Below, one piece after another: positions 8,570 to 35,599 of a stretch of DNA of 64,000 nucleotides (positions are counted from its first letter, which is position 1; every line of letters begins with the position of its first letter). This DNA comes from an uncultured bacterium (GTDB lineage: Bacteria > Abyssobacteria > SURF-5). Location of the stretch: positions 46,198-110,197 of the forward strand of contig CAZSKP010000015.1 in NCBI GenBank assembly GCA_964607485.1. Direction: 5' to 3'. The notes beneath the pieces were generated by a model. That model searched no databases. It was not told the origin of the DNA and worked only from the letters and a program-made list of their open reading frames with translations. The position numbers and the translations under genes were made by a program.

Positions 8570-9568
8570 CTAGCCGGCCATTCTTATAATCAGATCCACG
8601 CAGCGCTTCGAGTAGCCCCATTCGTTGTCGTACCAGGACACGACCTTGAACATCTTCGAGCCCATGGTCATGGTGAGTTGGGCGTCGAAAATGGACGAGT
8701 GCGGGTTTCCTATTATGTCGACCGACACCACCGGGTCCTCGCAGTATTCTATGATGCCCTTGTGCGTCGTCTCGGCCGCCTTCTTCATCACCCGGTTTAT
8801 CGCATCCACCGACACATCCTTTTTCGCTATCGCGACAAGGTCCGTCACCGAGGCGTCCTGAACGGGCACACGGAGCGCCATTCCGTCCAGCTTGCCGTTG
8901 AGCTCGGGAATCACCTTGCCCACCGCCTTGGCCGCGCCCGTAGTCGTGGGCACGATGGAAACGGCTGCCGAGCGTGCCCGCCTGAGGTCCTTGTGCGGCG
9001 CGTCAACAAGCCGCTGGTCGGCGGTGTATGCGTGCACCGTCGTTATCAGTCCCCACTCTATCGTGAACGCCTTGTTCAGCACATTCGCCATCGGGGCCAG
9101 ACAGTTGGTCGTGCACGACGCGTTGGAAACGATTGTATGCTCCGGCTTCAGCGCGACATCGTTCGCTCCGAGCACTATCATCGCGTCCACGTCGCCCTTC
9201 GGAGGAACGGTCAGCAGAACCTTCTTGGCGCCCGCCTTGACATGCTTTGCGCAGTCGTCGCGCTTGCGAAAGATGCCCGTGGATTCCACAACGACTTTTA
9301 CATCAAGGTCCTTCCACGGCAGTTTCGCCGGGTCGCGCTCGGCCAGCACCTTCACCTGCTTCTTGCCCACGACCAGTGCGCCGTCCTTGACTGAGACCTG
9401 TTCCGGGAACCGACGGTGGGTGGAATCGTATTTAAGAAGATGGGCCAGTGTAGAGGCATCGGTGATATCGTTGACGGCAACCACTTCGATTTCGGGGTGT
9501 TCGCGCGTGGCCCGATAAACCATGCGCCCTATTCGTCCAAATCCGTTGATTCCGACTCTGATGGCCAT
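8570..9568 (-). CDS. gap: Type I glyceraldehyde-3-phosphate dehydrogenase
   Basis: GINGFGRIGR, SNASCTTNCLAP, WYDNEWGYS; start at ATG 9568 after a GGGGA SD-like site. Confidence 0.98.
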   Translation of the reverse strand: MAIRVGINGFGRIGRMVYRATREHPEIEVVAVNDITDASTLAHLLKYDSTHRRFPEQVSVKDGALVVGKKQVKVLAERDPAKLPWKDLDVKVVVESTGIFRKRDDCAKHVKAGAKKVLLTVPPKGDVDAMIVLGANDVALKPEHTIVSNASCTTNCLAPMANVLNKAFTIEWGLITTVHAYTADQRLVDAPHKDLRRARSAAVSIVPTTTGAAKAVGKVIPELNGKLDGMALRVPVQDASVTDLVAIAKKDVSVDAINRVMKKAAETTHKGIIEYCEDPVVSVDIIGNPHSSIFDAQLTMTMGSKMFKVVSWYDNEWGYSKRCVDLIIRMAG

Positions 9569-9756
9569 CTTTTCCCCTTTCACTAGGTTTTTTCTGCCCA
9601 TAAACCTTCTAATATATCCAGCAATTATGTCACAAATGAAAAGAGAAGTCAATCGCCCCGGCGTGGGGGTTCAGCGGCGCTTCGGCGGAGTTGCTTCCTC
9701 AAACGAAGAGTGTTGCGGTTTCCTGCGATGGCCTGCGAAGGTGTAGGGAGATGATT

Positions 9757-10188
9757 TCAGCGGCGTCGTTGCGAGCCGGCCTGCAGCCGTCTGTTCATCA
9801 TGGCGACCCGGCCCGCCATGGCCCATGAGCCGGCGGTTATGCCCGTGTGGGCGTGAGGCGCCTCGGATTTCTGTTCCGATTCCATGGCAATTGCGATGGC
9901 GGCTCCTATGACGGCGACCATTTCTTCCTCGCCCGCCTCCCGCTCGTGTATTTCGGCCAGGCCGGCGGCCGGCGTTTCCACTTTATGTTTTTGCGCGCCT
10001 CTCGCCTCCTGCCGTGCGACGATTCGTGAGACGATCGCGCCGAGCAGTTGCATCGCGATCAGCAAAATCGCGAGCACGATGAACACTCCCACAAACCGAA
10101 TGAGCAGGGTGCTCATTATGAAGCCCCACGGCAGCTCGACGGCTCTTTGGATCAGCTCTTGCACGGGCACCTCGCGCGTACGCGTCAA
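9757..10188 (-). CDS. OadG/MmdD-like small membrane subunit of Na+-translocating decarboxylase (start uncertain)
   Basis: Single N-terminal TM (GVFIVLAILL), linker, EEMVAVIGAAIA helix and C-terminal SWAMAGR motif. Confidence 0.6.
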   Translation of the reverse strand: MTRTREVPVQELIQRAVELPWGFIMSTLLIRFVGVFIVLAILLIAMQLLGAIVSRIVARQEARGAQKHKVETPAAGLAEIHEREAGEEEMVAVIGAAIAIAMESEQKSEAPHAHTGITAGSWAMAGRVAMMNRRLQAGSQRRR

Positions 10189-10339
10189 GAAGCGCGGTTT
10201 TCACACATTTGCGCCAACGACGCCTATTATACAAATTCTGGGGAAAAAATCAACTCGACGGCGGCAGGTCGGGGAAATTAAGCAATACAAAAGATACATT
10301 CGCGGGAGGCATTGGAGCGACGAGAGGACATCTTCTTCC

Positions 10340-10963
10340 TTATTTCTGTTCGTCCAGCTTGACGCGGGTGCTGATGAACACGTGGTCGTCCTCTATCGAG
10401 TAGGCGAGACCGGTCTGCTGACAGATGCGCGTTATGATGGTCCTGAGCGGCAGCGGGTTGTCTGTCCTGATGCTGACTTCCGAATCCAGCAGGCCCTTGG
10501 ATTCGGCGAGCACCGTCTCATCCACTATGATGTTCACATCGGTCAAGAATGTAAGCGACTTGGCGACGTTGCGGACGTCCTCCTCCGAGAAATCCACCTG
10601 AACCAGTTGATTCAGCTTCTGGTAAAACTTGTCCTGGGCCTCGCCCTTGTCCTTTATCTCTTCGATGACTTTCTTGCAGCACTCTATCGATTCATCCACC
10701 ATGCGATCGATGCCGTGTGGACGCTCGTCGGGCAGGTTGGGATAATCTTTCCAGATGTTCTCGTACCCGCGGAGCGCCTCTCTGTACTTCCGCAGCGCGA
10801 GCGCGTAGTCCTTTCCCTCGAGCGCTTCCGCAGCCTGTTCCTCTATGGGTTTCACCTCGTGCAGAAACACGAACAGCGCGGATTTTTGAATCTCGAACGC
10901 CCCGACCTCGACCGAGGTCATGCACGACAACAGGACGATGAGAAGCAACGTCGCTCGCTTCAT
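10340..10963 (-). CDS. Secreted hypothetical protein with helical N-part and STN/secretin-N-like C-terminal domain
   Basis: Signal peptide; C-terminal VQVDFSEEDVRNVAKSL...VNIIVD...VSI...PLRTIITRIC..TGLAYSIEDDHVFIST pattern; ATGA overlap with upstream PHP gene. Confidence 0.6.
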   Translation of the reverse strand: MKRATLLLIVLLSCMTSVEVGAFEIQKSALFVFLHEVKPIEEQAAEALEGKDYALALRKYREALRGYENIWKDYPNLPDERPHGIDRMVDESIECCKKVIEEIKDKGEAQDKFYQKLNQLVQVDFSEEDVRNVAKSLTFLTDVNIIVDETVLAESKGLLDSEVSIRTDNPLPLRTIITRICQQTGLAYSIEDDHVFISTRVKLDEQK

Positions 10964-11667
10964 CGGCTTTCACCCGACAGCAAATTGCGGAAAGTTCCCG
11001 AAATGTTGTCGTAGATGTGCTCCAACCCATGTTTGCCGAACTCTATCAGCTTCAGCGGATTGGCGGCGATCTCGAGGCGGCCGGCCTTGACGGCGTCGAT
11101 TATGGCCTCCGTGTTTTTTTCGGCCTCGACGAGCGAGTAGGCCGAGCCGAATTTCTCCAGGTGATGACAATCGGACGTGCACACCAGCGGGAGCCCATGC
11201 TTCGCGGCCGTCCGGAGGGCGAACATGTTGAAATTTATCCGGCTGTGATAGAACCATGAAAATTCTAACGCATCAAACACATCGATGTTTCTTCCCACAA
11301 GCCACATGAGAGAAGAAAAGTCGGGGAAATATGGATGAGGAGCCACGACCATATTCTCAGGAGTTCGGAGCCTCCTCAGGTCGTCAAGGCTGCGTGCCTC
11401 GAGGATTTCATCGCGCGCGTTCACAACAAGCACGTGCTTTCCCCGGATATTCGCCTCGACGCCCGGAATGAGAACAATTCCCCGCTCACGCGCATAGTCC
11501 CGCAGATAGCTGCTGAAAGAAACGGCGTTGTGATTCGTGATGCTTATCGCGTCGAATCCCAGGTAGTACGCCTTATCTATCAACTCACAGCTTGTGTGCA
11601 GGACTGGCTCTTCCGGGTCGTCTGCAGTGTGTGTATGAAGGTCGACTTTCAGAAATTTCTTGGGCAT
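10960..11667 (-). CDS. PHP-domain metal-dependent phosphoesterase (start approximate)
   Basis: KVDLHTHT, AISITNHN, IPGVE, VAPHP, TSDCH motifs. Confidence 0.9.
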   Translation of the reverse strand: MPKKFLKVDLHTHTADDPEEPVLHTSCELIDKAYYLGFDAISITNHNAVSFSSYLRDYARERGIVLIPGVEANIRGKHVLVVNARDEILEARSLDDLRRLRTPENMVVAPHPYFPDFSSLMWLVGRNIDVFDALEFSWFYHSRINFNMFALRTAAKHGLPLVCTSDCHHLEKFGSAYSLVEAEKNTEAIIDAVKAGRLEIAANPLKLIEFGKHGLEHIYDNISGTFRNLLSGESR

Positions 11668-11766
11668 CTCAACTTCGATTTCTCTCATCAGGCGAAGCTT
11701 CTCCCACAATTTTAGTTGTGCAAAACAGATTTGTCAACGATGCCAGTGTTACATCAGTTATTCTGG

Positions 11767-11782
11767 TGCATAATTTGTGCCA
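11767..11782 (-). promoter_or_regulatory. sigma54-like -24/-12 promoter facing the PHP gene
   Basis: Minus strand TGGCACAAATTATGCA (GG-N10-GC). Confidence 0.55.
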
Positions 11783-11810
11783 GAAAAAGATTCGCTCAGC
11801 CTCCCGACGA

Positions 11811-11839
11811 TTGACTTTTCATATTTCGGGAAATATAAT
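11811..11839 (+). promoter_or_regulatory. sigma70 promoter of the kinase-Clp operon
   Basis: TTGACT-N17-TATAAT upstream of a GGAGG SD and GTG 11885. Confidence 0.7.
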
Positions 11840-11884
11840 GCGGAAGGAGCGGAGTGTGTCCCAACTCTGAGGGAGGGGGCTCTG

Positions 11885-14089
11885 GTGTTCGATATTGGCC
11901 AGTGGATTGAAGACCAATATCTCGTCCTCGAACGACACCGCGGCAGGCGGTGGACCGTCTATGTGGTGCAGGACCGCATTTCGGAGAATGTGTTCGTCAT
12001 CAAGAGACCCTCGGAAGTTCTGCTTCCCGACCCCCTCGCGGCGGACCATTTCGTCAACGAAGCGAGAATCTGGATAAACATCGGCGAATGCGATGAGGTC
12101 GTCAACGCGTACCTTATCAAGGAGTTTGAGGGAATACCCCACCTGTTCCTTGAGTACACTGACGGCCCCAGTCTCGAAGACATCCTAAGCTCGCGCCCCG
12201 GGAAACCGCTCCCCACCGACCAGGCCGTCGCCCTCATGAGGCAGCTCATTAACGGCATGAAGTTTCTTCATTCGGCGAGTCTGACGCCTGGAAATCGGGG
12301 TGTCGTACACGGCAGCCTGACCCCCCACGCCATCTTGACCAAATCGGGGAACATCAAGATAACCGACGTCGGCCTGGCCCACGCGTTGCGCCAGTCTTCC
12401 AGGATGCTTAATGCCGGCCACTTTCTCTGGGACATTTCATACATGGCGCCCGAGCAGTTACAGGACCTCCGCGAGGCCGACAAACTGACCGATATTTACT
12501 CGTTCGGTGCAATAATGTACGAAGTCGCGACGGGTACGTCGCCGATGATGGGGAAAAAACCCGAGGACCCCTTGAGCGACATCGTCCGGTTCGAGCCGGC
12601 TCACCCCCGGACGCGCAATCGCTCGTGCCCTCGGTGGCTGGAGGAAACGATTCTGAAATGCATGGCGCGGGAGCGGGCAAACCGCTTCCAGAGCTTCGAG
12701 CTGATTGACGCGTTCGTGAGCGAAGTGCTCAGGGGAGAGGAGGAAGCCTCGCCGGCTCGTGACGCGAAGGAGGAAACGGATTCCGCCCATACCTCGCGGG
12801 TGGCGCGTGTGCGCGGAGTGGCGAAGAAGGAATCGCGCCGGCTCGACCACTATTACGTCGGCGTCGAACACCTGATGCTCGGCCTCATTGCCGAAGAGGA
12901 AAGCGTCGTTGTGAGTTGTTTCGGCGACGCGGTAGACGCGGAACGGCTCCGTTCGGAAATTCTCTCCCATTTGCCGAAGGGGGAGGGGCCGTGGTATTGG
13001 GACGATATAAGAAAGACCCCGCGGTACAAACGCGTAATGAAGCTGGCGCGCAAGATAAAACGGGAACACAGCGACGACCGCATGCTCCCACAACACATCC
13101 TCCTCGCGATACTGAAGGAGGGACGGAACGTGCCGGTCCGCGTGCTCAAGGGATTGAACGTCGATGTCAAAGCCGCGGCCCGAAACCTGCGGCGGGAGAT
13201 GAAGCGCAGAAGGCCGGCAATCTTCGTTGCCGATTCCGAACCTGGCGCGATTAGTTTCACGATCAAGGTGGCCTGCACGACCGACATCCCCTGTTCCATT
13301 CCCTTCGTCGGCCGGCGCTCGGAACTGGAAAGAGCTCGCGGGCTGCTCCTCGACGACAGAAGAAGCGTCATGATAGTGGGCGAACCGGGGGTCGGAAAGA
13401 CGGCCTTCGTGCACGAACTTGAGTGTCTTGTTTCGGAAGCGTCGGGCGACGCAGGGCGCGAGAGCGGCGGCCTGGTCAAACTTCACGTCGCGTCCCTCAT
13501 CGCGAGCACCGAGGGAGGGGAACAGATTATCTCTAATCTCACGGACGCCATCAACTCGGTCGTCGGTTCCAAATCCATCCTGGTGATAGAGGACCTTCCG
13601 GTGGTTGTCGGCCTCGGCGGAAAACTGCCGCCGGGGGCTGTCGGCAGGATGCTCGAAGAGTACATCGTGTCCAAAGGGCTGGTCGTCGTGGCAACGACCA
13701 CGCGCGCAGGGTACGTGTCGTGCGAAGCGGAGCACGAGAACCTGGTCCCGTTTCTCGAAGTGATAAACCTGCGCGAGCCTTCGAGTGAAGAGACGTTCGA
13801 GATGCTGGTGGCGGCGAAGGAGACTCTTGAGAACGAGCACTCCGTCAGGATCGTCGATGAGGCGCTGACCGCCTCGGTCGACCTTTCGCGAGAGATCCAG
13901 GGGAGAGCGCTTCCTGCAAGGGCGTTCGAGCTGCTCGACCGCGCATGCGTCGGCGCGAGGTTGAGCGCAAGCACGCCTGAGCAGGCTCGCGAGCAGATCG
14001 TCATCGATGCGGAACGAGTGGAATATGCCCTGGCCGAAGCTCGGCAGCTCGAGCGGGCTCGGTCCGACCAAGAGCGTGGAGTCGTATAG
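11885..14089 (+). CDS. Fusion of Hanks-type (pseudo)kinase, Clp N-terminal domain and ClpA/B NBD1-like AAA+ domain
   Basis: Kinase fold (VIK, FVNEAR, LEY, HGSLTPHA, KITDVGL, YMAPEQ, DIYSFG); ClpN repeats (HYYVGVEHLMLGL, TPRYKRVMKLA...QHILLAILKE); FVGR, GEPGVGKT, EPS..E, RALPARAFELLDRAC; start moved to GTG 11885. Confidence 0.88.
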   Translation: MFDIGQWIEDQYLVLERHRGRRWTVYVVQDRISENVFVIKRPSEVLLPDPLAADHFVNEARIWINIGECDEVVNAYLIKEFEGIPHLFLEYTDGPSLEDILSSRPGKPLPTDQAVALMRQLINGMKFLHSASLTPGNRGVVHGSLTPHAILTKSGNIKITDVGLAHALRQSSRMLNAGHFLWDISYMAPEQLQDLREADKLTDIYSFGAIMYEVATGTSPMMGKKPEDPLSDIVRFEPAHPRTRNRSCPRWLEETILKCMARERANRFQSFELIDAFVSEVLRGEEEASPARDAKEETDSAHTSRVARVRGVAKKESRRLDHYYVGVEHLMLGLIAEEESVVVSCFGDAVDAERLRSEILSHLPKGEGPWYWDDIRKTPRYKRVMKLARKIKREHSDDRMLPQHILLAILKEGRNVPVRVLKGLNVDVKAAARNLRREMKRRRPAIFVADSEPGAISFTIKVACTTDIPCSIPFVGRRSELERARGLLLDDRRSVMIVGEPGVGKTAFVHELECLVSEASGDAGRESGGLVKLHVASLIASTEGGEQIISNLTDAINSVVGSKSILVIEDLPVVVGLGGKLPPGAVGRMLEEYIVSKGLVVVATTTRAGYVSCEAEHENLVPFLEVINLREPSSEETFEMLVAAKETLENEHSVRIVDEALTASVDLSREIQGRALPARAFELLDRACVGARLSASTPEQAREQIVIDAERVEYALAEARQLERARSDQERGVV

Positions 14090-14440
14090 TTGAAGTCCGA
14101 CAAGTCCCCCGCCGGGAAAACCGATAAAATCATCGTCGAGGTCATGAACGGGCCTGAGGACGGGCGCGTTGTCGTGTGCGACAAGATTCCTGTATCGATA
14201 GGCAGAGGAACCGACAACCGAGTATGCATTCCCTACGACCATCTCGTTTCGCGGCATCACGCCAAGATCGCAGGATCAGAGGGTAAGTTTCTCCTGTGCG
14301 ATTTGAACAGCACCAACGGCACTTTCGTGGGGAGCGAACGGGTTCGGGAAGACACGCCCATTGAGCCCAACAAGCTGTTTCGCGTGGGCGCGACCCTGCT
14401 GATGCTCAAACTCCGCTCAGCCGACGCATCGCCGAAATAG
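14090..14440 (+). CDS. Stand-alone FHA domain protein
   Basis: SIGR, VSRHHA, DLNSTNGTFV: canonical pThr-binding residues present. Confidence 0.93.
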   Translation: MKSDKSPAGKTDKIIVEVMNGPEDGRVVVCDKIPVSIGRGTDNRVCIPYDHLVSRHHAKIAGSEGKFLLCDLNSTNGTFVGSERVREDTPIEPNKLFRVGATLLMLKLRSADASPK

Positions 14441-14458
14441 ACGAGGAGCGTGACGTCC

Positions 14459-16360
14459 ATGGCACATGAGAAGGAGCCTGCGGCCGCCCGAAATCGTACG
14501 AAACACCGCCGCAAGCTTCCCTGCGCCAACCACCCGAGAAATCCCGCCGCAGCCCGCTGCGAGGTCTGTGGAAATCCGATATGCAGGGAGTGCGTGCAGT
14601 TCTACGACGGCGCGCACATCTGCGGTGAGCTGTGCTGGAACAAGAAGCGGTTGGACGAATCGGCAAAAGCCTCCAAAGAGGACAGGCTCCGGCGGCGACA
14701 AAAGGAAAAGAAAGCAAACCGTGCCGTGACGGTGGGGCTGTTGGCGGCGCTGGTCGTGGTTCTGGGGGCGGTCGGCGCTTTCGTGTACACTGTCGTGTCC
14801 GACCACTCGGGAGACAAAGCCTGGGAATTCGAGAATCCGGGAGGGTCCTTCGATTACGCGGTCCGACCGAACCTGAACTCCGTCTTCCTTCTGTCGGCGG
14901 ACGGAAACGTAGAGACAATCGACGCCTTGACCGGCGTGCTAAAATGGCGCGTCAAATTGCCCGAGAGGTCCGGCCACTCGGAACTGATGATAATCGATGA
15001 AGACCACTGTCTCGTCTATTTCGGGAACACGGTCTTGCTCTGTAAATCGGGCCGAGCGGCGCCGGCGTGGGAATTCAGTGCACCACAGCCTTTTCTGTGC
15101 GCCGAGCCGGTGCATTTGGATGACCGTCTCTACGCGGTAAGCTCCCCGGTCGGCTCCTTCTTCCAGGTGTTTCCCGAGCTGGAAGAGATGAGGTCTGCGC
15201 TCTTGATGTCTCCCGAGCTCGAATCGCTGAGGTCCGTGGTCCGGGCGCCGAGGCCGCAGTCAGATTCGGCCGGCGCAATCCCGCCCCCACGGGAACAACC
15301 GGAGACGGCCGGCGAGCAAGCCGAAGTGGAGCGGCTCTCCACGGTCAGCGCCGTGGACATGGCCTCCGGCAAAGGACTGTGGGACACCGAACTGGTAGGT
15401 CTTAGGGTCGAGGGCCTGCTGGCGGATGAAAGTCGGGTCTACGCGGTCGGCTATCAGTGGAGAGAATACGGGAGGTACGGCGCGGCCCCGGAACCGGAAG
15501 AGCCCAAACAGGAGGACTCCGCCGGCGACCAAGAAGCCTCACACGTCAGCTCCACCCAGCTTTGGGCGCTGAACGCGACAACCGGCGAGCCGGAGTGGAA
15601 GCTGGAAGGGATGGGCAATTTTCTGGTTTCTCCCATGAAGAGCGACGAGGGCATCGTCTTCTCGACAATGGAGAATATCTACTTGATCTCGCCCGAGGGA
15701 AAGATAAAATGGAAATATTCCCTCGGCGAGAGAGGTGTTTACGCGTTTCAGCCGAGCTATGACAAGCTCTTTGTCTCAACGGGCGACGGATTCCTTGTCT
15801 GCATCGACCTCGCCTCCGGACGCGAAAAGTGGACGACCGAGGTCGGCATGGGAGCCGACAGGATAGTCGTCAGTTCTCCGCTCGCATACGTCTCGTCACT
15901 GGTCAAGGTGGAGAAGGAAGCCCGGAGAGTAATAATGACGAAACGCTGGAAGGGGTCGGAGGACCTGTTGAAAAAAGCGCTGAAGCGAGACGAAGTGAGC
16001 TATGAAAGAGTCATCCACGGCATCGACGTCGAGAGCGGTGAGACGCGCTGGTCGATTCCGAAGATCGAGGGCGAGTTCGAATATGGGCGGGGATTTCTGT
16101 ACGCGTTGCGCTATTTCGAGAGGCTGCAACTCCTCGATGCCTCGGTCGACTCCAGCCAGATAGCCAAGACGGTGTCGAATCTGGGCGCGTACGACTGCCT
16201 GACCGGCGAGAAAGTCTGGGAGACCGGTATTGACGGCTACGCATCGGACCTGCGTCTGACCCCATTCGTCGGCATCGTGAAGTCACGCTCGCAAGTGCTT
16301 ACCGTCGGCGCGGCGGCCGAACAGCGTCCCGGACGCCTGATCGGAATTTCTCTCGAGTGA
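14459..16360 (+). CDS. B-box zinc finger + single TM + PQQ-like beta-propeller protein
   Basis: CANHP...CEVCGNPICREC...ICGELC; hydrophobic helix VTVGLLAALVVVLGAVGAFVY; repeated D..TG...W motifs (DALTGVLKW, DMASGKGLW, NATTGEPEW, DLASGREKW, DVESGETRW, DCLTGEKVW). Confidence 0.85.
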   Translation: MAHEKEPAAARNRTKHRRKLPCANHPRNPAAARCEVCGNPICRECVQFYDGAHICGELCWNKKRLDESAKASKEDRLRRRQKEKKANRAVTVGLLAALVVVLGAVGAFVYTVVSDHSGDKAWEFENPGGSFDYAVRPNLNSVFLLSADGNVETIDALTGVLKWRVKLPERSGHSELMIIDEDHCLVYFGNTVLLCKSGRAAPAWEFSAPQPFLCAEPVHLDDRLYAVSSPVGSFFQVFPELEEMRSALLMSPELESLRSVVRAPRPQSDSAGAIPPPREQPETAGEQAEVERLSTVSAVDMASGKGLWDTELVGLRVEGLLADESRVYAVGYQWREYGRYGAAPEPEEPKQEDSAGDQEASHVSSTQLWALNATTGEPEWKLEGMGNFLVSPMKSDEGIVFSTMENIYLISPEGKIKWKYSLGERGVYAFQPSYDKLFVSTGDGFLVCIDLASGREKWTTEVGMGADRIVVSSPLAYVSSLVKVEKEARRVIMTKRWKGSEDLLKKALKRDEVSYERVIHGIDVESGETRWSIPKIEGEFEYGRGFLYALRYFERLQLLDASVDSSQIAKTVSNLGAYDCLTGEKVWETGIDGYASDLRLTPFVGIVKSRSQVLTVGAAAEQRPGRLIGISLE

Positions 16361-16386
16361 ACGGCAGATGAACAATCTGGGAGACT

Positions 16387-17511
16387 ATGACCGGGAACAG
16401 GAGAAAAGAGGCAGGTCCCTCCCGCGGCGAGGCCGTCGCCAACTACATCACCGACCTTCTTAAGAACTCTATCGAGATAGTCACCGACTATTCCTGCAAG
16501 TATCATCCCGACCGCGCCGCCACCGCCGTCTGCGAATGGTGCAGCGCCGACCTTTGCTCCGATTGCGCGCACGTTCGAGGCCATCGGCTCGTGTGCCGCA
16601 ATTGCATGGGCTCACTCGACAGGACGTTTGCGGGAACGGGCGCCGCGTCGGTTCTGACGCGGCTGCTCACGCACCCAATTGTGGTCGCATTGGTGCTGAC
16701 GACATTGCTCGGAGGCCTGCTCGTCGGCCTCGGCAGGATTCATCGCAAGGGACTGCTGGGGGAAGTTCCGGCGACCGCCAGCGGGGTCGAAAAACAGTTT
16801 CGTCTGAAGCTCGTCCTGTATGCGCAGAAAGCCGACCGCATCGAAACCCACGCCGATGAACTCCAGAAAGTCGGCCGCACCGATGAGGCGGCGGCGGACT
16901 ATGACCGCGCCAGGTCCATCCACGAGATGCTGGCCCGCGAGGCCGCCGGCAGATGGGAGGAGCAGGCTTTCACTCTGGCGAGAGCGAGAATCCTGGAAAA
17001 AACGGGCGAACGCGCCTATGCCCAAGGGCTGTACGAAAACGTCGCCAACCTGCCCGGCGCAGACAAAACCTATCCCGTCATCGCGCAGTTTCATCTGGCC
17101 AAACTCCAGGAAAAGACGAACCCGGAAGAGGCGGTGGCGACGTACACGCGACTCCTGCGCGACGTCAACTTCGTTCCCGACAATTTCTCCCGCGCGGTCA
17201 ACATGATGGCGCATTCGCAGGGCGCTTACAACTACGACAGCCGGATACAATTTCACACGCGCACCGACTTCGATTTCGACACGGTCAAAGTGGAGACGCT
17301 GCTGGAGATGGGTCGGCTGTTGGCTGCTATGGGACGTACCGACGAGGCTGCGTTCAGACTGGGGCAGGCGGCCAACGAGGGATTTGGCACGAAGCTGGGC
17401 GAGCAGGCCACGGCTGAACTCAGGAAGCTCCACACCGTCGATGTGCCCGAGGAACCTCCCGAAGAAGAGGCCGAGAAAGAAGAAGAACTGACCATAACTC
17501 ACTTCGACTGA
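16387..17511 (+). CDS. B-box zinc finger + TM + TPR-like protein
   Basis: CKYHP...CEWCSADLCSDC...VCRNC; TM IVVALVLTTLLGGLLVGL; TPR-like helices; acidic C-terminal tail. Confidence 0.82.
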   Translation: MTGNRRKEAGPSRGEAVANYITDLLKNSIEIVTDYSCKYHPDRAATAVCEWCSADLCSDCAHVRGHRLVCRNCMGSLDRTFAGTGAASVLTRLLTHPIVVALVLTTLLGGLLVGLGRIHRKGLLGEVPATASGVEKQFRLKLVLYAQKADRIETHADELQKVGRTDEAAADYDRARSIHEMLAREAAGRWEEQAFTLARARILEKTGERAYAQGLYENVANLPGADKTYPVIAQFHLAKLQEKTNPEEAVATYTRLLRDVNFVPDNFSRAVNMMAHSQGAYNYDSRIQFHTRTDFDFDTVKVETLLEMGRLLAAMGRTDEAAFRLGQAANEGFGTKLGEQATAELRKLHTVDVPEEPPEEEAEKEEELTITHFD

Positions 17512-17547
17512 CGCCCGCGGCCGCTGCTGACGTCATGAGGACGGAAT

Positions 17548-18768
17548 ATGCTTTTTCCGGTCAAAATTGAGACAGAGATAGAAAAGTTTCCGATCTTCAC
17601 CTATCTCATAATAGTCGCAAACGCGGTCGTATTCCTGTCCATGCGGTTCCTTCCCGCGTCGGCGCTGGAAATGGCGTATTACGATTACGGATTCATCCCC
17701 GACCACATCGACGCCGTCTCGATGTTCACGTCGCTGTTTGTCCACGCGGGCTGGCTGCACATCGTTGGCAACATGTATTTTCTGTGGCTGTTTGGGCGGG
17801 CGGTGGAACAGCGATTGAACAGAGTGCTGTACGTGATCCTGTACTTCAGCAGCGGAGCGGCAGGCGGCCTCCTGCATGCGGGACTGACGCCCGCGTACAT
17901 GGCCGACATTCCCTGTATCGGCGCCTCGGGCGCAATCTCGGGTGTGCTCGGCACCTACATGATTCTGTATCCGTGGGAGGAAGTGTACTGCATCTACTTT
18001 TCTTTCACGATGAGATATGCCACTTCCATAACTCTGTCCAGCGTCTGGGTGCTGGGCTCGTGGTTCGTGCTGCAGTTTGCGGACGCGCTCTGGTTCACGC
18101 CGCAGACGGCGGAAGCTACGGTCGCATTCTGGGCTCACATCGGCGGGTTCGTGTTTGGCGGGCTGGTTGCGGCGGTCCTGAAGTACTCCGCCGCCTTTGC
18201 CGGTATGCTTCGCAGGCGTTCGGTCGTAATCGCACTCGAGGAATATTCCGACCTCCTCCACAAAGGCAGGACCGACGAGGCGGAGGAGAGATTGAAGACG
18301 GCCCTGAAGGCCGCACCATCGAACGCGCTCGTTCTCGGCGAGCTGGGAAGAATCGAGTTGCGCCGCGACAACCGGAGGGGTGCGCGAAAGCTGCTCCGCC
18401 GCTCCCTGAAGAAGGCTCTCAAGCAGAAGGACGACGCAAAAGCCGTGGCCGCATACTTTTCGTTGGTCGCGGCCCGGGAAGATCCTCCCAGCAACTCGCA
18501 GCGTCTCGTCATCGGCCGAAGGTTTGCGCGTTTGAAGAAGTACGGCCATGCCCTCGGAATCATGGGCGGCGCGTTCAAGCCCGACGCCGAGATGCACGGC
18601 CTGGATATGCTGCTGTACGAGATTGCGGAAATCTTCGCCGGCCCGCTGAAGGATTGGGGCCGTGCCGAGGCATCCTACAGGCTGCTGCGAGAGCTGTTTC
18701 CCCATTCTCCCCGCAGTCTGGACGCGGAATACCAGCTTCGCAAGTTGCAGGCGAAAGGAAGGGCCTGA
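17548..18768 (+). CDS. Rhomboid intramembrane serine protease with C-terminal TPR-like domain
   Basis: FVHAGWLHIVGNM, GASGA (catalytic Ser), WAHIGG (catalytic His), then a helical repeat domain. Confidence 0.93.
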   Translation: MLFPVKIETEIEKFPIFTYLIIVANAVVFLSMRFLPASALEMAYYDYGFIPDHIDAVSMFTSLFVHAGWLHIVGNMYFLWLFGRAVEQRLNRVLYVILYFSSGAAGGLLHAGLTPAYMADIPCIGASGAISGVLGTYMILYPWEEVYCIYFSFTMRYATSITLSSVWVLGSWFVLQFADALWFTPQTAEATVAFWAHIGGFVFGGLVAAVLKYSAAFAGMLRRRSVVIALEEYSDLLHKGRTDEAEERLKTALKAAPSNALVLGELGRIELRRDNRRGARKLLRRSLKKALKQKDDAKAVAAYFSLVAAREDPPSNSQRLVIGRRFARLKKYGHALGIMGGAFKPDAEMHGLDMLLYEIAEIFAGPLKDWGRAEASYRLLRELFPHSPRSLDAEYQLRKLQAKGRA

Positions 18769-18783
18769 GCCGGCCAGAGAGGC

Positions 18784-20496
18784 CTACCTCTTGGTCTCGG
18801 CCAGTTCCGGCAAGCGTTCGGGCGCGGGCTGTTCCTCGGCCGACGGCAGGGGCTTCCTCAGCATGTTGATGACCTCGACGATCATCCACACGACGAACAC
18901 TATGATGATGCCGTCTATTCCGAACAGCAGCCAGTGACCGCTCTTGTAGAACGCGACTATGTTCAGCGCCATAGCCCAGCCGGTCATTGCGACCATGAAG
19001 ATCATCGGCAGGCCCGTATATACGACGGACTTGCCCTTCTTGTGAAGGTACACGGTGATGACCATCAGGGCCAGGCCGGCAAGCAATTGGTTGCTGGCGC
19101 CGAACAATGGCCACAGGACCAGAGCACCCTGGCCGTTGGGCCTGACCAGCGCGAGCAGCAGGGCGGTGATGACCGCAAACGCCGTGGCGGGATGCCGTCG
19201 GGTCAGCGGTTTGATCTTGAAGCTCGCCGCCAGGTCGCTCACGACATAACGCTGAATTCTCGTCGCGGTATCGAGGGTCGTGGCCGCGAAGCTGACCACG
19301 AACACCCCCAGGATGGTCACGGCGAGAGTCTCGCCGACCCCGAGCGCTTCCAATAAATTCGCGCCGCCGTCCACGAACGCGGACACTTTTGCGCCGAGAC
19401 CGGAAACGGCCGCCCAACTTGCGTAGCGCGCGCTCCACGCCTCCGTGCCGCCGAGGCCGGCCGTGCACGCCAATATGACCATGGTCGCGAGGGCCGCTTC
19501 CATGATCATGCCGCCATAGCCGATGAACTGCGCGTGGGTCTCATTGGAAAGCTGCTTGGATGATGTTCCGGAGGCAACGAGGCTGTGAAAGCCCGAGATC
19601 GCGCCGCATGCTATGGTGATGAAGAGGAACGGCCACATCGACGGAGCGCCCTTGGGAGCGGCCACATAGGCCGGGGCGCTTATGTGCGGGTGCGCGGCTA
19701 CGAGACCGATGAACAGCAGGCCCATGGCGATGAGCAACTGGTGTGAGTTTATGTAGTCGCGCGGCTGGAGCAGCGTCTGAATCGGGAGCACCGACGCGAC
19801 GTAGGCGTATATCATCAGGATAACCACCCACGTTACCAGGGGAGAACCCAAGATGATTCCCGGCATCTCGAACGGAATGTATGTCCCGATCCAGACGAAA
19901 ACATAGAGCATGATGACCGCCACGATTGAAAGCGTCCGGGGGTTGGCGTTCTTCTTGTACACCAGGTAACCCAGGGTTACCGCGACAGGGACTTCCATCC
20001 AGATTGGAAATATCAGAGTCGGATACATGGTGAACAGGATGCCGATTATCATCGCGAATATCGAGACGACGATGAACAGGGCGAAAAAGATGACAAGGAG
20101 GAATAACAGGCGCGAGGTCGGACTGACGAGGTCGCTGGTGACCTCTCCGATGGATTTTCCCTTGTTGCGGGAAGAGATCACGAGGGAGCCGAAGTCGTGA
20201 ACGGCGCCCATCACGATTGACCCGACAATTACCCAGATGAGGGCGGGCACCCATCCCCAAATGACCCCTATGGCCGGGCCGACGATCGGGCCGGTCCCGG
20301 CGATGGACGTGAAGTGATGACCGAAAAGCACCTCTTTTTTCGTCGGAACATAATCCATGCCGTCGGCCATTTCATGGGCCGGGGTGACCGCCTCCCTGCT
20401 GAGAGCGAAGAGCTTTCGCCCCAGGAATCGTCCGTATGTCCTGTAGGCGATTATGAATCCGACGTAAACCAGAATACACAACACCAGCGAATTCAT
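18784..20496 (-). CDS. cstA: Carbon starvation protein A family peptide/pyruvate transporter
   Basis: TPAH..DGMDYVPT, FGHHFTSIAGTGPIVGP, LLQPRDYIN, IACGAISGFHSL, WPLFGASNQLLA. Confidence 0.95.
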   Translation of the reverse strand: MNSLVLCILVYVGFIIAYRTYGRFLGRKLFALSREAVTPAHEMADGMDYVPTKKEVLFGHHFTSIAGTGPIVGPAIGVIWGWVPALIWVIVGSIVMGAVHDFGSLVISSRNKGKSIGEVTSDLVSPTSRLLFLLVIFFALFIVVSIFAMIIGILFTMYPTLIFPIWMEVPVAVTLGYLVYKKNANPRTLSIVAVIMLYVFVWIGTYIPFEMPGIILGSPLVTWVVILMIYAYVASVLPIQTLLQPRDYINSHQLLIAMGLLFIGLVAAHPHISAPAYVAAPKGAPSMWPFLFITIACGAISGFHSLVASGTSSKQLSNETHAQFIGYGGMIMEAALATMVILACTAGLGGTEAWSARYASWAAVSGLGAKVSAFVDGGANLLEALGVGETLAVTILGVFVVSFAATTLDTATRIQRYVVSDLAASFKIKPLTRRHPATAFAVITALLLALVRPNGQGALVLWPLFGASNQLLAGLALMVITVYLHKKGKSVVYTGLPMIFMVAMTGWAMALNIVAFYKSGHWLLFGIDGIIIVFVVWMIVEVINMLRKPLPSAEEQPAPERLPELAETKR

Positions 20497-20540
20497 GTTC
20501 TTGTCCCTCCTCAGAAAACGCGAGACACAAAACCGATTTC

Positions 20541-20569
20541 ATCATACCAGATTGCACGCAGTGGGTCAA
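20541..20569 (-). promoter_or_regulatory. sigma70-like promoter of cstA
   Basis: Minus strand TTGACC-N17-TATGAT with extended -10 TG. Confidence 0.55.
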
Positions 20570-20739
20570 GAATTTGGAACGCGCTTCAAGCCTCGTTAAC
20601 TGATTGGCGCCCGTGATGTTTTCTTGACAAATTGTCGGGAAATGTGAGAGAATTGCGCCATTCTGTGGTAACGCCATCGATCCGGCAGGCGGGCGGGGAA
20701 GCGGCTGTTCGGACGGCCGATTTTTCGCTGACGTGCCGC

Positions 20740-20768
20740 TTGACAATGTGGGGACGATGGGGTATAAT
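20740..20768 (+). promoter_or_regulatory. Consensus sigma70 promoter of the TetR gene
   Basis: Perfect TTGACA-N17-TATAAT. Confidence 0.85.
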
Positions 20769-20774
20769 TATTAG

Positions 20775-20792
20775 TGAATGAACAGTCATTCA
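20775..20792. promoter_or_regulatory. TetR/FadR-type operator 1
   Basis: Palindrome TGAATGA-ACAG-TCATTCA over the predicted transcription start. Confidence 0.8.
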
Positions 20793-20801
20793 TAAAAGCC
20801 C

Positions 20802-21431
20802 GTGGCTAAACAAAAATCAATCGCTATCAGAGAATCAATCCTCGAATCCGCCACTAAGGTGTTCGCCAAGACGGGCTTCTATAAGGCGAAGGCCGTTGAA
20901 ATCGCCCGCAGGGCCAACATCGCGGTCGGGACTATCTATAACTATTTCAAAAACAAGGACGACATACTGATCTCGATTTTCAACGAGCGCATAGGCGAGC
21001 TCAATCGTTCGTTGAGAACCGCGATACAGCAGACCGACGACCCGGACGAAAAACTGGGAATCATCCTCGACTCCACAATCTCGATGATGGAAAGCGACAG
21101 AGAGCTTGCCGAGGTAGTCACGATCGAGCTGCGCCAGAGCAGCAAATTTTTCTCGAGCACGGCTATCGCTTCCGTAGTGGAGTTTCTCGACATCTTGACC
21201 GACGTCATTCATCAGGGGCAGCAGCGGGGTATCTACCGGGCCGACATGGATGCGAGGGTGGTGGCGCTCATCGCGCTTGGCGGACTCGAAAACCTGCTCC
21301 ACGTGTGGGTGCTGAGCGACAGGGTTCCGGAACTGAAGTCGAAATACAGCATCTCGCTGGCAGAGGGCAGGGAGGCGTTCAAGGGGCTGGTCAAGTACGG
21401 GCTTCGCCGTGACGCTCGAGAGCTCGAGTAG
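20802..21431 (+). CDS. TetR/AcrR family regulator, FadR(YsiA)-like
   Basis: ILESATKVFAKTGF...IARRANIAVGTIYNYFKNKDDILISIF HTH; ELRQS motif in the ligand domain. Confidence 0.93.
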   Translation: MAKQKSIAIRESILESATKVFAKTGFYKAKAVEIARRANIAVGTIYNYFKNKDDILISIFNERIGELNRSLRTAIQQTDDPDEKLGIILDSTISMMESDRELAEVVTIELRQSSKFFSSTAIASVVEFLDILTDVIHQGQQRGIYRADMDARVVALIALGGLENLLHVWVLSDRVPELKSKYSISLAEGREAFKGLVKYGLRRDARELE

Positions 21432-21543
21432 GGAACGGAAGCGCGTCGGCAGAAGGGAAGCATTGCCCAGGAGGAGCCAGGTTGTGAAGCGTGACTCGAC
21501 TGCGAATGTGTTAAGAGAGGGCGGTTTTTTTAAACTCTGGTGT

Positions 21544-21563
21544 ATGAATGAAGCTTCATTCAT
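21544..21563. promoter_or_regulatory. TetR/FadR-type operator 2, upstream of the MMPL gene
   Basis: Perfect 20-bp palindrome ATGAATGAAGCTTCATTCAT with the same half-site as operator 1. Confidence 0.82.
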
Positions 21564-21602
21564 GTGATAAGGATCGGCTGACTCTGTTATGAAGAGGCTT
21601 CC

Positions 21603-24041
21603 ATGAAAGCCGAGCTTCAACAAAACTACCGACAGGCGAACTGGATTATTCGACGAGTGCTGAGGCGTCCGCGGCTCACCATCTTTCTCTTCGTGCTGAC
21701 GGTCCTCGTTCTATCGCTCGGAATCGGAAAAGTGAAATTCGTCAACCGGTTTGAGAGGGACCTGCCGGAAGACGACCCCATTCTCCAGACCAATCGCCGA
21801 TTCGAGGAGGTCTTCGGCGAGCGTGACCTTCTCATGGTGGCCCTCGTGAATGAGGGGGGAATCTATAATGAGGAAACCCTCACGAAGCTTTTTGAAATCA
21901 CACGTGAGCTCGAAGAGGTCGAGGGAGTGATTCCGGGGAGCGTCAAGTCGCTCTGCACCGTGAAGAACATATCCGGCTCCGACTCTGTGCTCGACATCGG
22001 GCCTTTCTTCGAAGAGCCGCCTCGCACGGAGGAAGAGGTCGCGAAGATACGTGAATCGGTCGAGAACAATTTCATGGCGCGCGGACGGCTTGTCTCTCAC
22101 GACGGGACGGCCACCGTATTGCGTGCCAACCTTGCGTCCGACCACGACGTTGCGAAAGTGTACGAGCAGACGCGCGCCATCGCGCAGAAGTACTCCGGGC
22201 CGGAGCGCATGTACATCACCGGCGACACGGTGGTGGATTACGAGGTCACCAGCTCCATGCGAAAAGATGTCGCGATGCTGTTCCCCGTTGCGCTCATTCT
22301 TGCCGTGGCGATACTTCTCGTCGCGTTTCGAAGATTCGGCAGCGTTGTGGCTCCGTGCGCTGCGGTCATCGCAACGACAGCAGCATCGCTCGGTCTGATG
22401 GGATTTCTCGGATTGCCGGTGACCGTGGTCGGCAGCATTCTGCCGGTGGTCATCGTGGCGGTCGTGAGCGCGTATGGCATCCACATTGTCAATATCTTCG
22501 ACCATGAATGCGCAAAGGGAGGCGCGCGCAAGGATGTTCTCCGCCGGACGATGAACGCCGTGAGCGGGCCTGTCGCGATATCGGCGCTAACGTCGGCGAT
22601 CGGGTTCGGTTCTCTCATCATTTTCAAGATTCGCTCCATACATGATTTCGGCCTCGTCCTGGCCATTGCGATTCTGTTCGGACTCTGTTCTTCCGTGATA
22701 TTCATCCCGGCTGTCCTCGCAATTCTTCCGTCTAAAAGCGTTCGACGGAAGGAGTCGAACACATCGGCGTTTGTCGATTGGGTCATCCTTGGTTTCTATG
22801 AATTCGTTCAGAGGCGCAGGAAGATATTTGCGGTCGCCGTGGCGGCAGGGTTTCTCCTCTCGGTGGCGGCCACGTCCAGATTGAAGGTGGGGCTCGAACC
22901 CGCGAAGGTTTTTCCCGAGGGTCATCCCACGCGTCAGTCGCTCGACGTCTTCAACGAGGAACTCGGCGGCTCGACACATTTCAACGTGATGATCGACACC
23001 GGTCATGCCGACGGAATCATAGAGCCGGCGACGCTCGAGAAGATGGACGAGTTTCAGAAATTCGCCGAGTCGGAGCAACACGTCGGCTATGCCACCTCCT
23101 TTGTCGACGTGGTCAGGAGGCTGCATTCCGAACTGACAGCCGAAGAGCCCGAGGCCGGTTCGCTGCCCGAAGACAAGTCTCAGGTGGCGCAGTATCTGCT
23201 CCTCTACAGCCTTTCGGGCGACCCGACCGATTTCGAGGATTTAGTGGATTATGAGTATCGGAGGGCGAGGCTCGTCGTCATGCTCGACACGTACGACGAC
23301 GCCGAACACCTCGAGCTGTACGAGAAGTTGAAGGGGAAGGCGGAGGAACTCTTCGGGGGCGGCGCCCACACGGAATTCGGCGGGCGCGCAATGATCCTGA
23401 TCGGCCAGGACCGCTACATAGTTGTCGGCAAGATCCTGAACATTATCTGCTCGCTCGCGATAGTGTGGATGGTTTGCACGCTGTATTTCCGTTCTGTGAG
23501 CGCAGGCCTGTTAAGCATAGTGCCGCTTGGCGTCGCGACCGTTTACACGTTCGGCCTGATGGGTGTGACAGGGATGAGGCTGAACATGGCGACTGCGATG
23601 ACCACGGGCATAGCCGTCGGGGTCGGGGTCGATTTCGCCGTCCACTACATACACCGTTTCCGCGAGGAGTTTCTGCGGAGCGGCGACGACACGCTGGCCG
23701 TCCGGAACACCCTGCTCACGACCGGAAAAGGCATCATCTTCAACACGCTCTCGGTCTCGTTCGGATTCCTCGTGTTCATGGGGTCGCGGTTCCAGGTGTT
23801 GCACGACTTCGGCTGGCTCATAGCGCTGACCATGCTCACGTGCGCCGCGGGCACCCTGATGTTTCTGCCGCCTCTTATCCGCGTGTTGCGCCCGTATTTC
23901 ATCTACGGCAAAGAGCCACAATACATCACGATGGTTCTTTCTTTGCCGCAAGTGCGAATTCCGGGAACAAGACTGGAGCTCGGCCTCGACGCCCCATCTT
24001 GGCTGAGCTCCGGACTGAAGAGGATTTCTCACTATTTTTGA
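21603..24041 (+). CDS. MMPL/RND superfamily transporter
   Basis: Two repeats of TM + large extracytoplasmic loop + TM bundle; GVGVDFAVH motif; ALTSAIGFGSL. Confidence 0.92.
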   Translation: MKAELQQNYRQANWIIRRVLRRPRLTIFLFVLTVLVLSLGIGKVKFVNRFERDLPEDDPILQTNRRFEEVFGERDLLMVALVNEGGIYNEETLTKLFEITRELEEVEGVIPGSVKSLCTVKNISGSDSVLDIGPFFEEPPRTEEEVAKIRESVENNFMARGRLVSHDGTATVLRANLASDHDVAKVYEQTRAIAQKYSGPERMYITGDTVVDYEVTSSMRKDVAMLFPVALILAVAILLVAFRRFGSVVAPCAAVIATTAASLGLMGFLGLPVTVVGSILPVVIVAVVSAYGIHIVNIFDHECAKGGARKDVLRRTMNAVSGPVAISALTSAIGFGSLIIFKIRSIHDFGLVLAIAILFGLCSSVIFIPAVLAILPSKSVRRKESNTSAFVDWVILGFYEFVQRRRKIFAVAVAAGFLLSVAATSRLKVGLEPAKVFPEGHPTRQSLDVFNEELGGSTHFNVMIDTGHADGIIEPATLEKMDEFQKFAESEQHVGYATSFVDVVRRLHSELTAEEPEAGSLPEDKSQVAQYLLLYSLSGDPTDFEDLVDYEYRRARLVVMLDTYDDAEHLELYEKLKGKAEELFGGGAHTEFGGRAMILIGQDRYIVVGKILNIICSLAIVWMVCTLYFRSVSAGLLSIVPLGVATVYTFGLMGVTGMRLNMATAMTTGIAVGVGVDFAVHYIHRFREEFLRSGDDTLAVRNTLLTTGKGIIFNTLSVSFGFLVFMGSRFQVLHDFGWLIALTMLTCAAGTLMFLPPLIRVLRPYFIYGKEPQYITMVLSLPQVRIPGTRLELGLDAPSWLSSGLKRISHYF

Positions 24042-32271: not shown

Positions 32272-32344
32272 GCCACAGAGTTCACCGAGAGCACAGAGAC
32301 CTGGAAAGGAATAATCTCTCCGAGAACTCTGTGCCCTCTGTGGC
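32272..32344. repeat. 9-mer-repeat hairpin H1 (CACAGAG type)
   Basis: GCCACAGAG-TTCACCGAG-AGCACAGAG ... CTCCGAG-AACTCTGTG-CCCTCTGTG-GC. Confidence 0.8.
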
Positions 32345-32393
32345 TTTATCAATCCTCCCTGTGGTAAAATGCCGACATCGGGAAGAAACGTCC

Positions 32394-35300: not shown

Positions 35301-35474
35301 ACAATGCTCGAACTGCATAAGAAGCTTCATGGGGCGAGGACGCCGGATGAGAAGACGATGCTCCAGCGGCAGATCGACGCGACCGACCGGCAGATCGACA
35401 ATATCGTGTACGAACTCTACGGGTTGACAGATGAGGAAATAGCTATAGTCGAAGAAGCAACGAAGAAGAGCTGA
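32394..35474 (+). CDS. Type IIG/IIC fused restriction endonuclease-m6A methyltransferase with target recognition domain
   Basis: N-terminal PDY..FVETK nuclease motif, GVYYTP, ILDPACGSGSFL (motif I), GNPPY (motif IV), TaqI-like TRD, C-terminal QID..VYELYGLT.EEI..VE. Confidence 0.93.
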   Translation: MPEAPAEITRLIERFDRNIESYRAPGYKEAQLRAEFINLFFEALGWDVRNIEGRAEAYKDVIHEDAIKVGAPDYCFRIGGTRKFFVETKKPAIDIKADGRGKDTPAYQLRRYAWSAKLPLSILTDFEEFAVYDCRIRPKQSDKVSTARIFYCTHREYPEKWEYIAGIFSKEAVLLGSFDKYAESTRGKRGTSQVDAEFLKEIEGWREMLARNIALRNPNLSVRELNFSVQRTIDRIIFLRMAEDRGIESYGQLQQLLNGTEVYARLRNIYDGADKRYNSGLFHFQKEKGRDEPPDELTPTLKIDDKALKDIFKHLYYPDSPYEFSVLGGNILGNVYEQFLGKVIRLTPGHRARVEEKPEVKKAGGVYYTPSYIVDYIVKHTVGKLCEGKTPKEVSKLKILDPACGSGSFLIGAYTYLLDWHRDLYAKEPKKHADKVYQGPGGLWYLSTREKKRILLNNIYGVDIDGQSVEVTKLNLLLKLLEGENQDTLERQLKLWRERALPDLASNIKCGNSLIGPDFYDFHQMDLFDEEERYRINVFDWNAAFPEIFKGKNPGFDAVVGNPPYVRIQTMKEWASQEAAFYKGAYATAGKGNYDIYVVFVEKGLALLREKGYLGVIVSSKFMKAQYGEPLRALIASGKHLAEVVHFESEQVFEGPTTYTCLLFLSKSERRFYDYSCIPDIPLWRSGHSFPLARLSAESVGHGPWNFSVGEGASILRRLESTPVKLKDVSRLFVGLQTDADDVFILEQVELREDRVICSSKATEEQHEFEDVHLKKLLKGSLNIRRYYFSDITKRLIFPYETENNRSILIDQTAYARRFPLTWSYLVRNRERLARRSKGNLKKSEWHGYVYKKNHTLFGYSKIVVPSIGTGSCFALDSEGEFYFVGSGGGGGGGYGIIPHPEQEFSLYYLLGVLNSRLLDYFLKNTSTPYRGGYIALNKQYIEQLPVRIIDFSNRQELARHDKMVSLVQTMLELHKKLHGARTPDEKTMLQRQIDATDRQIDNIVYELYGLTDEEIAIVEEATKKS

Positions 35475-35485
35475 AAAGATTTCAG

Positions 35486-35572: not shown

Positions 35573-35599
35573 TGAAGAAGGTCTCTAAGATTGCAGCCT

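Follow-up and report, generated by a model that had tools for sequence, protein, structure and literature searches.

Rhomboid proteases that act with an AAA+ partner in membrane-protein quality control have a precedent in the YqgP (GluP)-FtsH system of Bacillus subtilis, in which the rhomboid carries a C-terminal TPR domain (PMC7231995). Prokaryotic B-boxes, binuclear treble-clef zinc fingers of membrane proteins, have been tied to how membrane proteins fold, stay stable, and undergo proteolysis (PMC4506424, citing Burroughs 2011), a pseudokinase and an FHA protein depend on phosphorylation by another kinase in the MviN-FhaA system of Mycobacterium (PMC12599244), and ClpC2 of Actinomycetota is a nonproteolytic homologue of the ClpC N-domain with one of its two phosphoarginine (pArg) sites (10.64898/2026.06.30.735635). 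Here, we describe a five-gene operon with likenesses to all of these systems, found in a 64,000-nucleotide stretch of DNA (the window; contig CAZSKP010000015.1) from an uncultured bacterium of the phylum Candidatus Abyssubacteria. The genes, called P1 to P5 in 5'-to-3' order, and their promoter are as follows.

11811..11839, + strand: predicted sigma-70-type promoter, TTGACT-N17-TATAAT (11/12 consensus matches).
11885..14089, + strand: P1, 734 amino acids (aa); Hanks-type pseudokinase (1-285), ClpC-like N-domain (303-442), and degenerate AAA+ D1 (470-715), from Pfam, AlphaFold2, and alignment.
14090..14440, + strand: P2, 116 aa; stand-alone FHA domain (PF00498, E 3e-15).
14450..16360, + strand: P3, 636 aa; cytosolic binuclear B-box, basic helix, transmembrane helix (TM) 94-112 with the N terminus inside (N-in), and outer PQQ/BamB-like propeller, from Pfam and a model.
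16387..17511, + strand: P4, 374 aa; IxDLL helix, B-box, TM 98-116, outer helical/TPR domain, acidic linker, and ITHF tail, from an alignment of 24 rows.
17548..18768, + strand: P5, 406 aa; six-TM rhomboid (GASG, H197) followed by a TPR domain (PF01694, E 2e-27; TPR).

The locus differs from each of its closest relatives. In YqgP, the TPR domain is extracellular and the enzyme's own N-terminal domain serves as the adaptor (PMC7231995), whereas the TPR domain of P5 is predicted to be cytosolic and its regulator would be a separate membrane-spanning protein, P4; moreover, the AAA+ module of this operon is degenerate, so that unfolding would need ClpC or FtsH encoded elsewhere. Unlike in the known prokaryotic B-box membrane proteins, the B-boxes here sit on separate single-pass proteins, one of which is predicted to dock onto the rhomboid TPR. 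ClpC2 represses transcription (10.64898/2026.06.30.735635), while P1 has no DNA-binding domain, carries a pseudokinase together with a dead D1, and has a putative pArg site. MviN is a membrane flippase without the beta-3 lysine (PMC12599244); P1, by contrast, is a soluble protein that retains Lys40 and Asp161 and has Clp domains in the same chain. In a 2025 atlas, all seven bacterial pseudokinase families substitute the beta-3 lysine, and the word "Clp" is absent from the main text of that work (10.1101/2025.01.12.632604). Compared with the Hsp100 unfoldases ClpC and ClpB, to which its N-domain and D1 are homologous, P1 lacks D2 and the middle domain, and its Walker B motif, pore loop, and Arg finger are degenerate. 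The component families and the theme of B-boxes in proteolysis are known; the combination was not found in the literature searched, which gave no description of the operon, of a trans-membrane partner of an active bacterial rhomboid, or of a kinase-ClpN-dead-D1 fusion (supplements and subscription papers lay outside its scope). Term searches in PMC12599244, 10.1101/2025.01.12.632604, PMC7159879, PMC8195603, and PMC12615303 likewise found neither the operon nor a kinase-ClpN-D1 protein.

Our preferred reading, which we hold tentatively and rate at somewhat short of an even chance, is that the operon encodes a constitutive, vertically inherited, partner-regulated two-layer rhomboid complex that turns over membrane proteins in connection with ClpCP. 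In the membrane core, P5 would act as the rhomboid protease and P4 as a dedicated, nonsubstrate partner subunit, its IxDLL helix and B-box plugging into the cytosolic TPR domain of P5 and its segment after the TM covering the outer loops around the active-site mouth (both according to one model), which would place P4 to gate P5 or to pass it substrates. P3 would be another receptor anchored by a B-box, its outer propeller serving to sense or recruit clients, as gene order and co-occurrence suggest. P1 would serve as a scaffold of dead enzymes (pseudokinase, ClpC N-domain, and nonthreading D1), P2 would read phosphothreonine (pThr) made by other kinases, and the two might connect the core to the Ser/Thr kinases and to McsB-ClpC-ClpP, so that the whole would form a regulated route for membrane-protein turnover resembling endoplasmic reticulum-associated degradation (ERAD).

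The evidence for this core begins with P5, whose Pfam rhomboid domain spans residues 58-211 and whose signature residues (the TM2 HxxxN, GxSG, and TM6 His motifs) are almost invariant, with G125, S127, H197, and N75 present in 32/32 rows and H71 in 31/32, which points to an active rhomboid. Hydropathy and a weak alignment to GlpG argue for six TMs and a cytosolic TPR domain. P3 has a Pfam B-box at 22-49 and a PQQ_2 propeller, all eight zinc ligands are kept in 10/10 rows, and the charge before its TM is +5 to +9 in the rows with a called TM (9/10); its topology is clearly N-in by this measure. The model of P3 (predicted local distance difference test [pLDDT] of 72) has beta-propellers, including BamB, as its fold matches, and the ESM Atlas gave no usable match for residues 18-125. 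Pfam assigns P4 a TPR; the B-box of P4 has a weak Pfam match (E 0.007, below the cut-off) and keeps all eight Cys/His ligands in 24/24 rows, and the fingers of P3 and P4 are homologous (hhalign probability of 93.6%). In the ESM Atlas, all P4 matches scored below 0.9 and were generic TPR proteins. The preliminary description of this DNA had seen two proteins of the type B-box, TM, and interaction domain and a rhomboid with an intact Ser-His dyad, and the Pfam domains and residue tallies agree with it.

Because P4 and P5 are always kept or lost together, this pair was picked for complex prediction, and it scored 0.76, against 0.01 for the best of three controls. The mark that it passed is reached by 116/157 solved complexes and by 2/215 mismatched pairs, a calibration that applies roughly to our own alignments. 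At least 87% of contacts recur between runs, the partner pLDDT is at least 78, and the pass is not obviously due to memory, because no solved chain resembles P4 by sequence. In the model, P4 residues 12-68 contact the P5 TPR domain (226-383), so that the P4 B-box lies on the cytosolic TPR, and P4 residues 112-174 contact P5 residues 38-52, 109-121, and W195. In P4, the outer interface exceeds the remaining outer residues in conservation (0.78 versus 0.63, p 0.002). P4 is thus predicted to bind P5 and to grip the rhomboid on both membrane faces, and the binding of a B-box protein to the rhomboid, a point on which the preliminary description was to be checked, gains the backing of a complex model. 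The same model predicts an N-in topology for P4; we lean on it here because the charge bias of P4 alone is ambiguous. The conserved C-terminal ITHF tail of P4 (window positions 17497-17511), which follows the acidic linker, is not among the named interface residues, and the P3 propeller is a candidate binder for it. Elsewhere in the genome, five more B-box proteins, four with predicted TM helices, are encoded at C21:34894, C40:39561, C45:2266, C45:15894, and C55:22570 of the window's own genome (G000), and they are possible further clients or partners.

TM2 and TM5 form the substrate gate of rhomboids, and the model names no confident contact of P4 to these helices or to S127 or H197, the unnamed residues being uncertain. 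In pseudoproteases, clients bind away from the TM2/TM5 gate, according to a review (PMC12615303). These contacts bear on the possibility that P4 or P3 is shed by the rhomboid in a regulated manner rather than bound as a partner. Typical rhomboid substrates have an N-out/C-in topology, with the cut falling at or past the outer end of the TM, and the type II protein Star can be a substrate if its motif loops back (PMC2941825); in our model, P4 residues 119-124, with invariant G122 and L124, do lie at the outer face of the rhomboid, and the interface includes W195, two residues from H197. A scan with a simplified rule taken from the same source (small P1, large hydrophobic P4, and hydrophobic P2' positions; PMC2941825) nonetheless found no recognition site in at least 40% of rows after the TM of P4 (111-140) or P3 (109-135), its best-scoring sites lay inside the TMs (14/24 and 7/10, respectively), and the lack of a named contact to the catalytic dyad, subject to the uncertainty just given, also speaks against cutting. 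We consider regulated shedding quite unlikely.

The preliminary description had gone a step further and proposed that the rhomboid cuts P3 and P4 to release soluble B-box fragments that are read by the cytosolic P1 and P2. A rhomboid with intact catalytic residues, two single-pass B-box proteins, and cytosolic readers do share one operon, and P4 is predicted to bind P5. However, P3 is strongly N-in and the model has the B-box of P4 on the cytosolic TPR, so that outer-face cleavage would liberate the outer domain, with the B-box still tied to its TM; there is no conserved cleavage motif at that face and no named S127 or H197 contact, P1 and P2 are absent upstream of P3-P4 in two genomes (G004 and G394, described below), and P4-P5 were not found in a third (G005). 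This proposal therefore appears very unlikely, and we return to a noncleaved P4 as a subunit of the P5 complex.

The cytosolic layer would be built around P1, which has no D2 and no TM. Its Pfam matches are a kinase domain (24-272), Clp_N, and AAA_lid_9, and its AlphaFold2 model (mean pLDDT of 82) matches the folds of StkP/PknB kinases and of ClpC. Residues were tallied in an alignment of 28 of 35 homologue matches, from which the self hit, four partial matches, and three unrelated ones were omitted. The catalytic Asp of the HRD motif is present in 2/28 rows and is otherwise Asn (19), Gly (5), Ser (1), or Val (1); beta-3 Lys40 is kept in 27/28 (one row being truncated) and DFG Asp161 in 27/28, the Gly-rich loop is down to one Gly (20/28), and the alpha-C Glu59 occurs in 1/28, the window's own. 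By its sequence, the domain is a pseudokinase, a call that follows a three-residue criterion (PMC12599244), and it could possibly still bind ATP. In the AAA+ part, the Walker A residues K505 and T506 are each kept in 27/28 rows, the Asp-Glu of Walker B is mostly swapped to Glu-Asp with the catalytic Glu in 0/28, the pore-loop Tyr at 545 is found in 0/28, and both Arg-finger arginines are found in 3/28; alignment to the genome's own ClpC (29% identity) stops after D1. P1 D1 may bind ATP and should neither hydrolyse it nor thread a substrate. The idea of P1 as a working unfoldase or kinase was rejected, as the catalytic Asp, the Walker B Glu, the pore Tyr, and D2 are lost. The preliminary architecture of pseudokinase, ClpN, and AAA+ parts stands, with the AAA+ part refined to a single degenerate D1; its description of the system as self-contained does not, as a kinase outside the operon would be needed where P1 has no catalytic Asp, and P1 should be unable to unfold substrates or to dock ClpP.

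Within P1, conservation is highest in the ClpN domain (0.75, versus 0.64 and 0.56 for the other two). Its E328 (28/28), R380 (28/28), and T378 (27/28) align to B. subtilis ClpC E32, R83, and T81, while the equivalents of ClpC T105/E106 are Pro/Gln; one of two pArg-type sites may thus survive in this N-domain. Residues 364-372 (window positions ~12974-13000) form a near-invariant PKGEGPWxW loop between the ClpN repeats that is absent from ClpC and is likely a binding surface for some partner. Among the 23 kinase domains of the genome, the sister of P1 is a kinase-ClpN protein (support of 98/98, with long branches), and P1 probably descends from an active kinase-Clp fusion, because this sister has intact HRD and DFG motifs. 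We rejected the active paralogue as an obligate partner, with a close kinase match in 3/9 relatives and the ClpN part in one of these. The sister lies in a signalling cluster (L013:7245-18677, G000:C20) that also encodes two vWA-FecR-FHA-DUF6982 proteins, a CHASE2-cyclase-kinase, and an FHA-GAF-cyclase, and parts of which recur in two relatives (G002 and G009). A 1,088-aa vWA-FHA-DUF6982 protein of the same architecture class as the L013 pair is encoded in the window itself (36359-39625, - strand), and a tandem array of seven Ser/Thr kinase open reading frames (ORFs), most with TPR-like parts, is found at G000:C2:79820-96235.

P2 keeps the FHA motifs GR (G38 R39), SxxH (S54 R55 H57), and NGT (N76 G77) invariant in 10/10 rows, and we take these motifs to have their usual pThr-binding roles. 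The pThr that it reads would have to come from a kinase other than P1, and so from outside the operon, because P1 lacks the catalytic Asp. Candidate FHA targets in P4 were rejected: T22 varies, and the residues after T371 are missing in many rows. The window's genome encodes mcsA-mcsB-clpC and clpP, and McsB is encoded in 11/11 genomes of the phylum. One run of genes (L045:4045-12382, G000:C8) joins mcsA-mcsB-clpC to genes that we presume, from their sequence features, to be lolC/E-like, lolD-like, and bamA-like, which puts the pArg system among envelope-biogenesis genes.

The distribution of the genes also bears on how they work together. We compared 11 genomes of the phylum, 10 of them in the window's family (the window's own and nine relatives). 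A full-length, single-match P1, 51-58% identical, occurs in 9/9 family relatives and in 0/31 other genomes; the order P1-P5 is intact in 7/9 relatives, in two of which a contig end cuts P5, and it is kept in three metagenome contigs as far as these reach. The genes are therefore co-conserved in the family, as the preliminary description had supposed, and P4 and P5 are adjacent in 8/8 relatives having both; the five are nevertheless not one fixed unit. The relative G005 (97% complete) has P1-P2-P3 followed by cstA, and neither P4 nor P5 was found in it. In G004, P1-P2 and a diverged P3 occupy the usual site, and another site carries a second P3 together with P4-P5, P1-P2 being absent from the 15 kb that precede the start of this P3; this second P3 is split over two contig ends (C2 and C82) that share no exact overlap of at least 16 bases, and the two parts would be one gene.

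Outside the family, searching 1.84 billion representatives with a profile recovered P3 sisters of the type B-box-TM-propeller at ~20% identity, one of them named Planctomycetota, and full-length rhomboid-TPR sisters of P5 at 30-37% identity. When 16 x 15 of these proteins were compared, three pairs of a P3 sister and a P5 sister came from contigs of exactly equal size and the same source, and each pair would lie on one contig. Among 391 genomes sampled outside the family, one of another phylum (G394) encodes a P3 sister, and the next gene is a P4 sister inside which the contig ends; there is no P1-P2 upstream of the P3 sister and no P1 fusion in that genome, whose sole rhomboid match is a plain 218-aa rhomboid elsewhere. 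Because only 1/13 genomes of that phylum has a P3 sister, the assignment of this contig is unconfirmed. A second sample of 401 genomes, largely the same ones, gave nothing new, a Planctomycetota-directed search reached a three-genome phylum with 0/3 matches, and P4 alone, searched against genome contigs, gave one weak unrelated locus among 503 candidates. P3-P4-P5 looks like an older core and P1-P2 like a family-specific addition, because sisters of P3, P4, and P5 occur beyond the family and P1-P2 were found in the family alone, with P3 traveling with both.

This pattern lends itself to another explanation, namely, that one promoter serves two largely separate functions, a P4-P5 rhomboid pair and a P1-P2-P3 phospho-signalling scaffold in which an outside kinase phosphorylates P1, the FHA protein is recruited in the manner of MviN-FhaA, and P3 acts as an envelope sensor, without any link to ClpCP or the rhomboid. 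The trio on its own in G005 and the split sites of G004 fit this explanation, as do the intact FHA motifs, the 23 kinase domains of the genome, the propeller fold of P3 (like that of BamB), and the MviN pseudokinase-FhaA precedent (PMC12599244). Against it, P3 accompanies both halves, being duplicated in G004, next to P4 in G394, and by the equal contig sizes probably together with the P5 sisters; furthermore, no part of P1 is better conserved than ClpN, and no conserved Thr fitting the FHA site was noticed in the alignment of the P1 activation loop. We regard two separate functions as rather unlikely.

The two-layer rhomboid complex that we prefer has to be weighed against several of our own observations. 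The complex prediction covers one pair, P4-P5, of ten possible, and neighbouring genes picked blind pass the same test in 7/44 cases. The cytosolic interface of P4 is not more conserved than its surroundings (0.65 versus 0.71, p 0.9), the interface conservation of P5 is not significant (p 0.07-0.31), and the charge bias of P4 is opposite to an N-in/C-out topology in 21/24 rows. The P1-P2-P3 trio of G005 has a use without this rhomboid, no rhomboid-TPR protein was found in G394 (91% complete), and the pairing of P3 and P5 sisters is drawn from equal contig sizes, not from DNA that was read. Finally, the P1 equivalent of ClpC Thr31 is Val in 28/28 rows, and the roles of E32, T81, R83, T31, and T105/E106 in the pArg sites of the ClpC N-domain are ones that we assume.

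The promoter and the chromosomal setting of the operon were also characterized. Its five ORFs all lie on the + strand with gaps of 0, 9, 26, and 36 bp, and the single promoter and closely spaced, co-oriented genes of the preliminary description are borne out by ORFs, promoter, and Pfam domains. The region contains six promoter-like sites, where shuffled sequences average 1.5. An 11-12/12 match lies 60-80 bases upstream of the P1 start in 10/10 loci (the window, eight relatives, and one metagenome contig). The longest ORF of P1 starts at 11777, upstream of the promoter; GTG 11885 is most likely the true start, because the orthologues begin there. No convincing terminator was found (seven candidates versus 6.5 expected), and Rfam gave no match within 9000-22000. 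The GC content at third codon positions is 0.72-0.76 for the five genes, compared with 0.73-0.80 for pnp, pgk, gap, and cstA, and a divergent PHP gene neighbours the operon in 7/9 relatives.

These observations speak to the suggestion that the operon is an anti-phage or other conflict system. P1 does match the PADLOC kinase models PD-T4-6 and mad6, and pseudo-enzymes, TPRs, and propellers are among the parts of the conflict systems that Kaur et al. described in 2020 (PMC7159879). The PADLOC matches, however, span the generic kinase fold only, with none for P2-P5, no effector domain is present, and the fixed chromosomal site beside the PHP gene, the presence of P1 throughout the family, the native, housekeeping-like codon use, and the conserved sigma-70 promoter are out of keeping with it. 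We judge a conflict function, which the preliminary description had entertained, to be highly improbable.

Several further features of the window were noted. A motif that we presume to be sigma-54-like, TGGCAC-N5-ATGCA, faces the PHP gene (11767-11782, - strand), with similar motifs in at least 5 of 9 other upstream sequences, and a sigma-70-like site (11737-11709) is also directed toward that gene. A 207-aa protein (10340-10963, - strand), which is hydrophobic over an N-terminal stretch and matches no Pfam family, is 66-73% identical and adjoins the PHP gene in 7/9 relatives. Farther away, the window encodes a 1,047-aa restriction-modification fusion (Eco57I-type methylase, TaqI_C; 32331-35474, + strand), beside which the GC content dips to 0.48 (34001-36000), and a 631-aa dynamin-family GTPase (PF00350; 56645-58540, + strand).

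The reach of these findings is limited, with the full system found in one uncultured family and the core in scattered uncultured lineages. Bacterial rhomboids are usually studied as single chains, and little is known of most of their partners and substrates. This operon supplies a concrete candidate partner with a residue-level predicted interface, and it offers a setting in which the part that prokaryotic B-boxes are predicted to play in membrane-protein proteolysis can be tested. P1 is an unusual pseudo-enzyme, conserved in spite of its degeneration, and the same genome encodes a catalytically intact sister, a kinase-ClpN protein, for comparison. In a bolder version, which we consider doubtful, P3-P4-P5 would be an obligate multisubunit rhomboid in which a regulatory trans-membrane subunit connects gating at the outer face with a B-box/TPR latch in the cytosol; in the Abyssubacteria, the dead kinase-ClpC chimera would read pThr (through the FHA protein) and pArg and route the products to ClpCP. 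If true, this would amount to a B-box-based bacterial ERAD in which phospho-codes replace ubiquitin.

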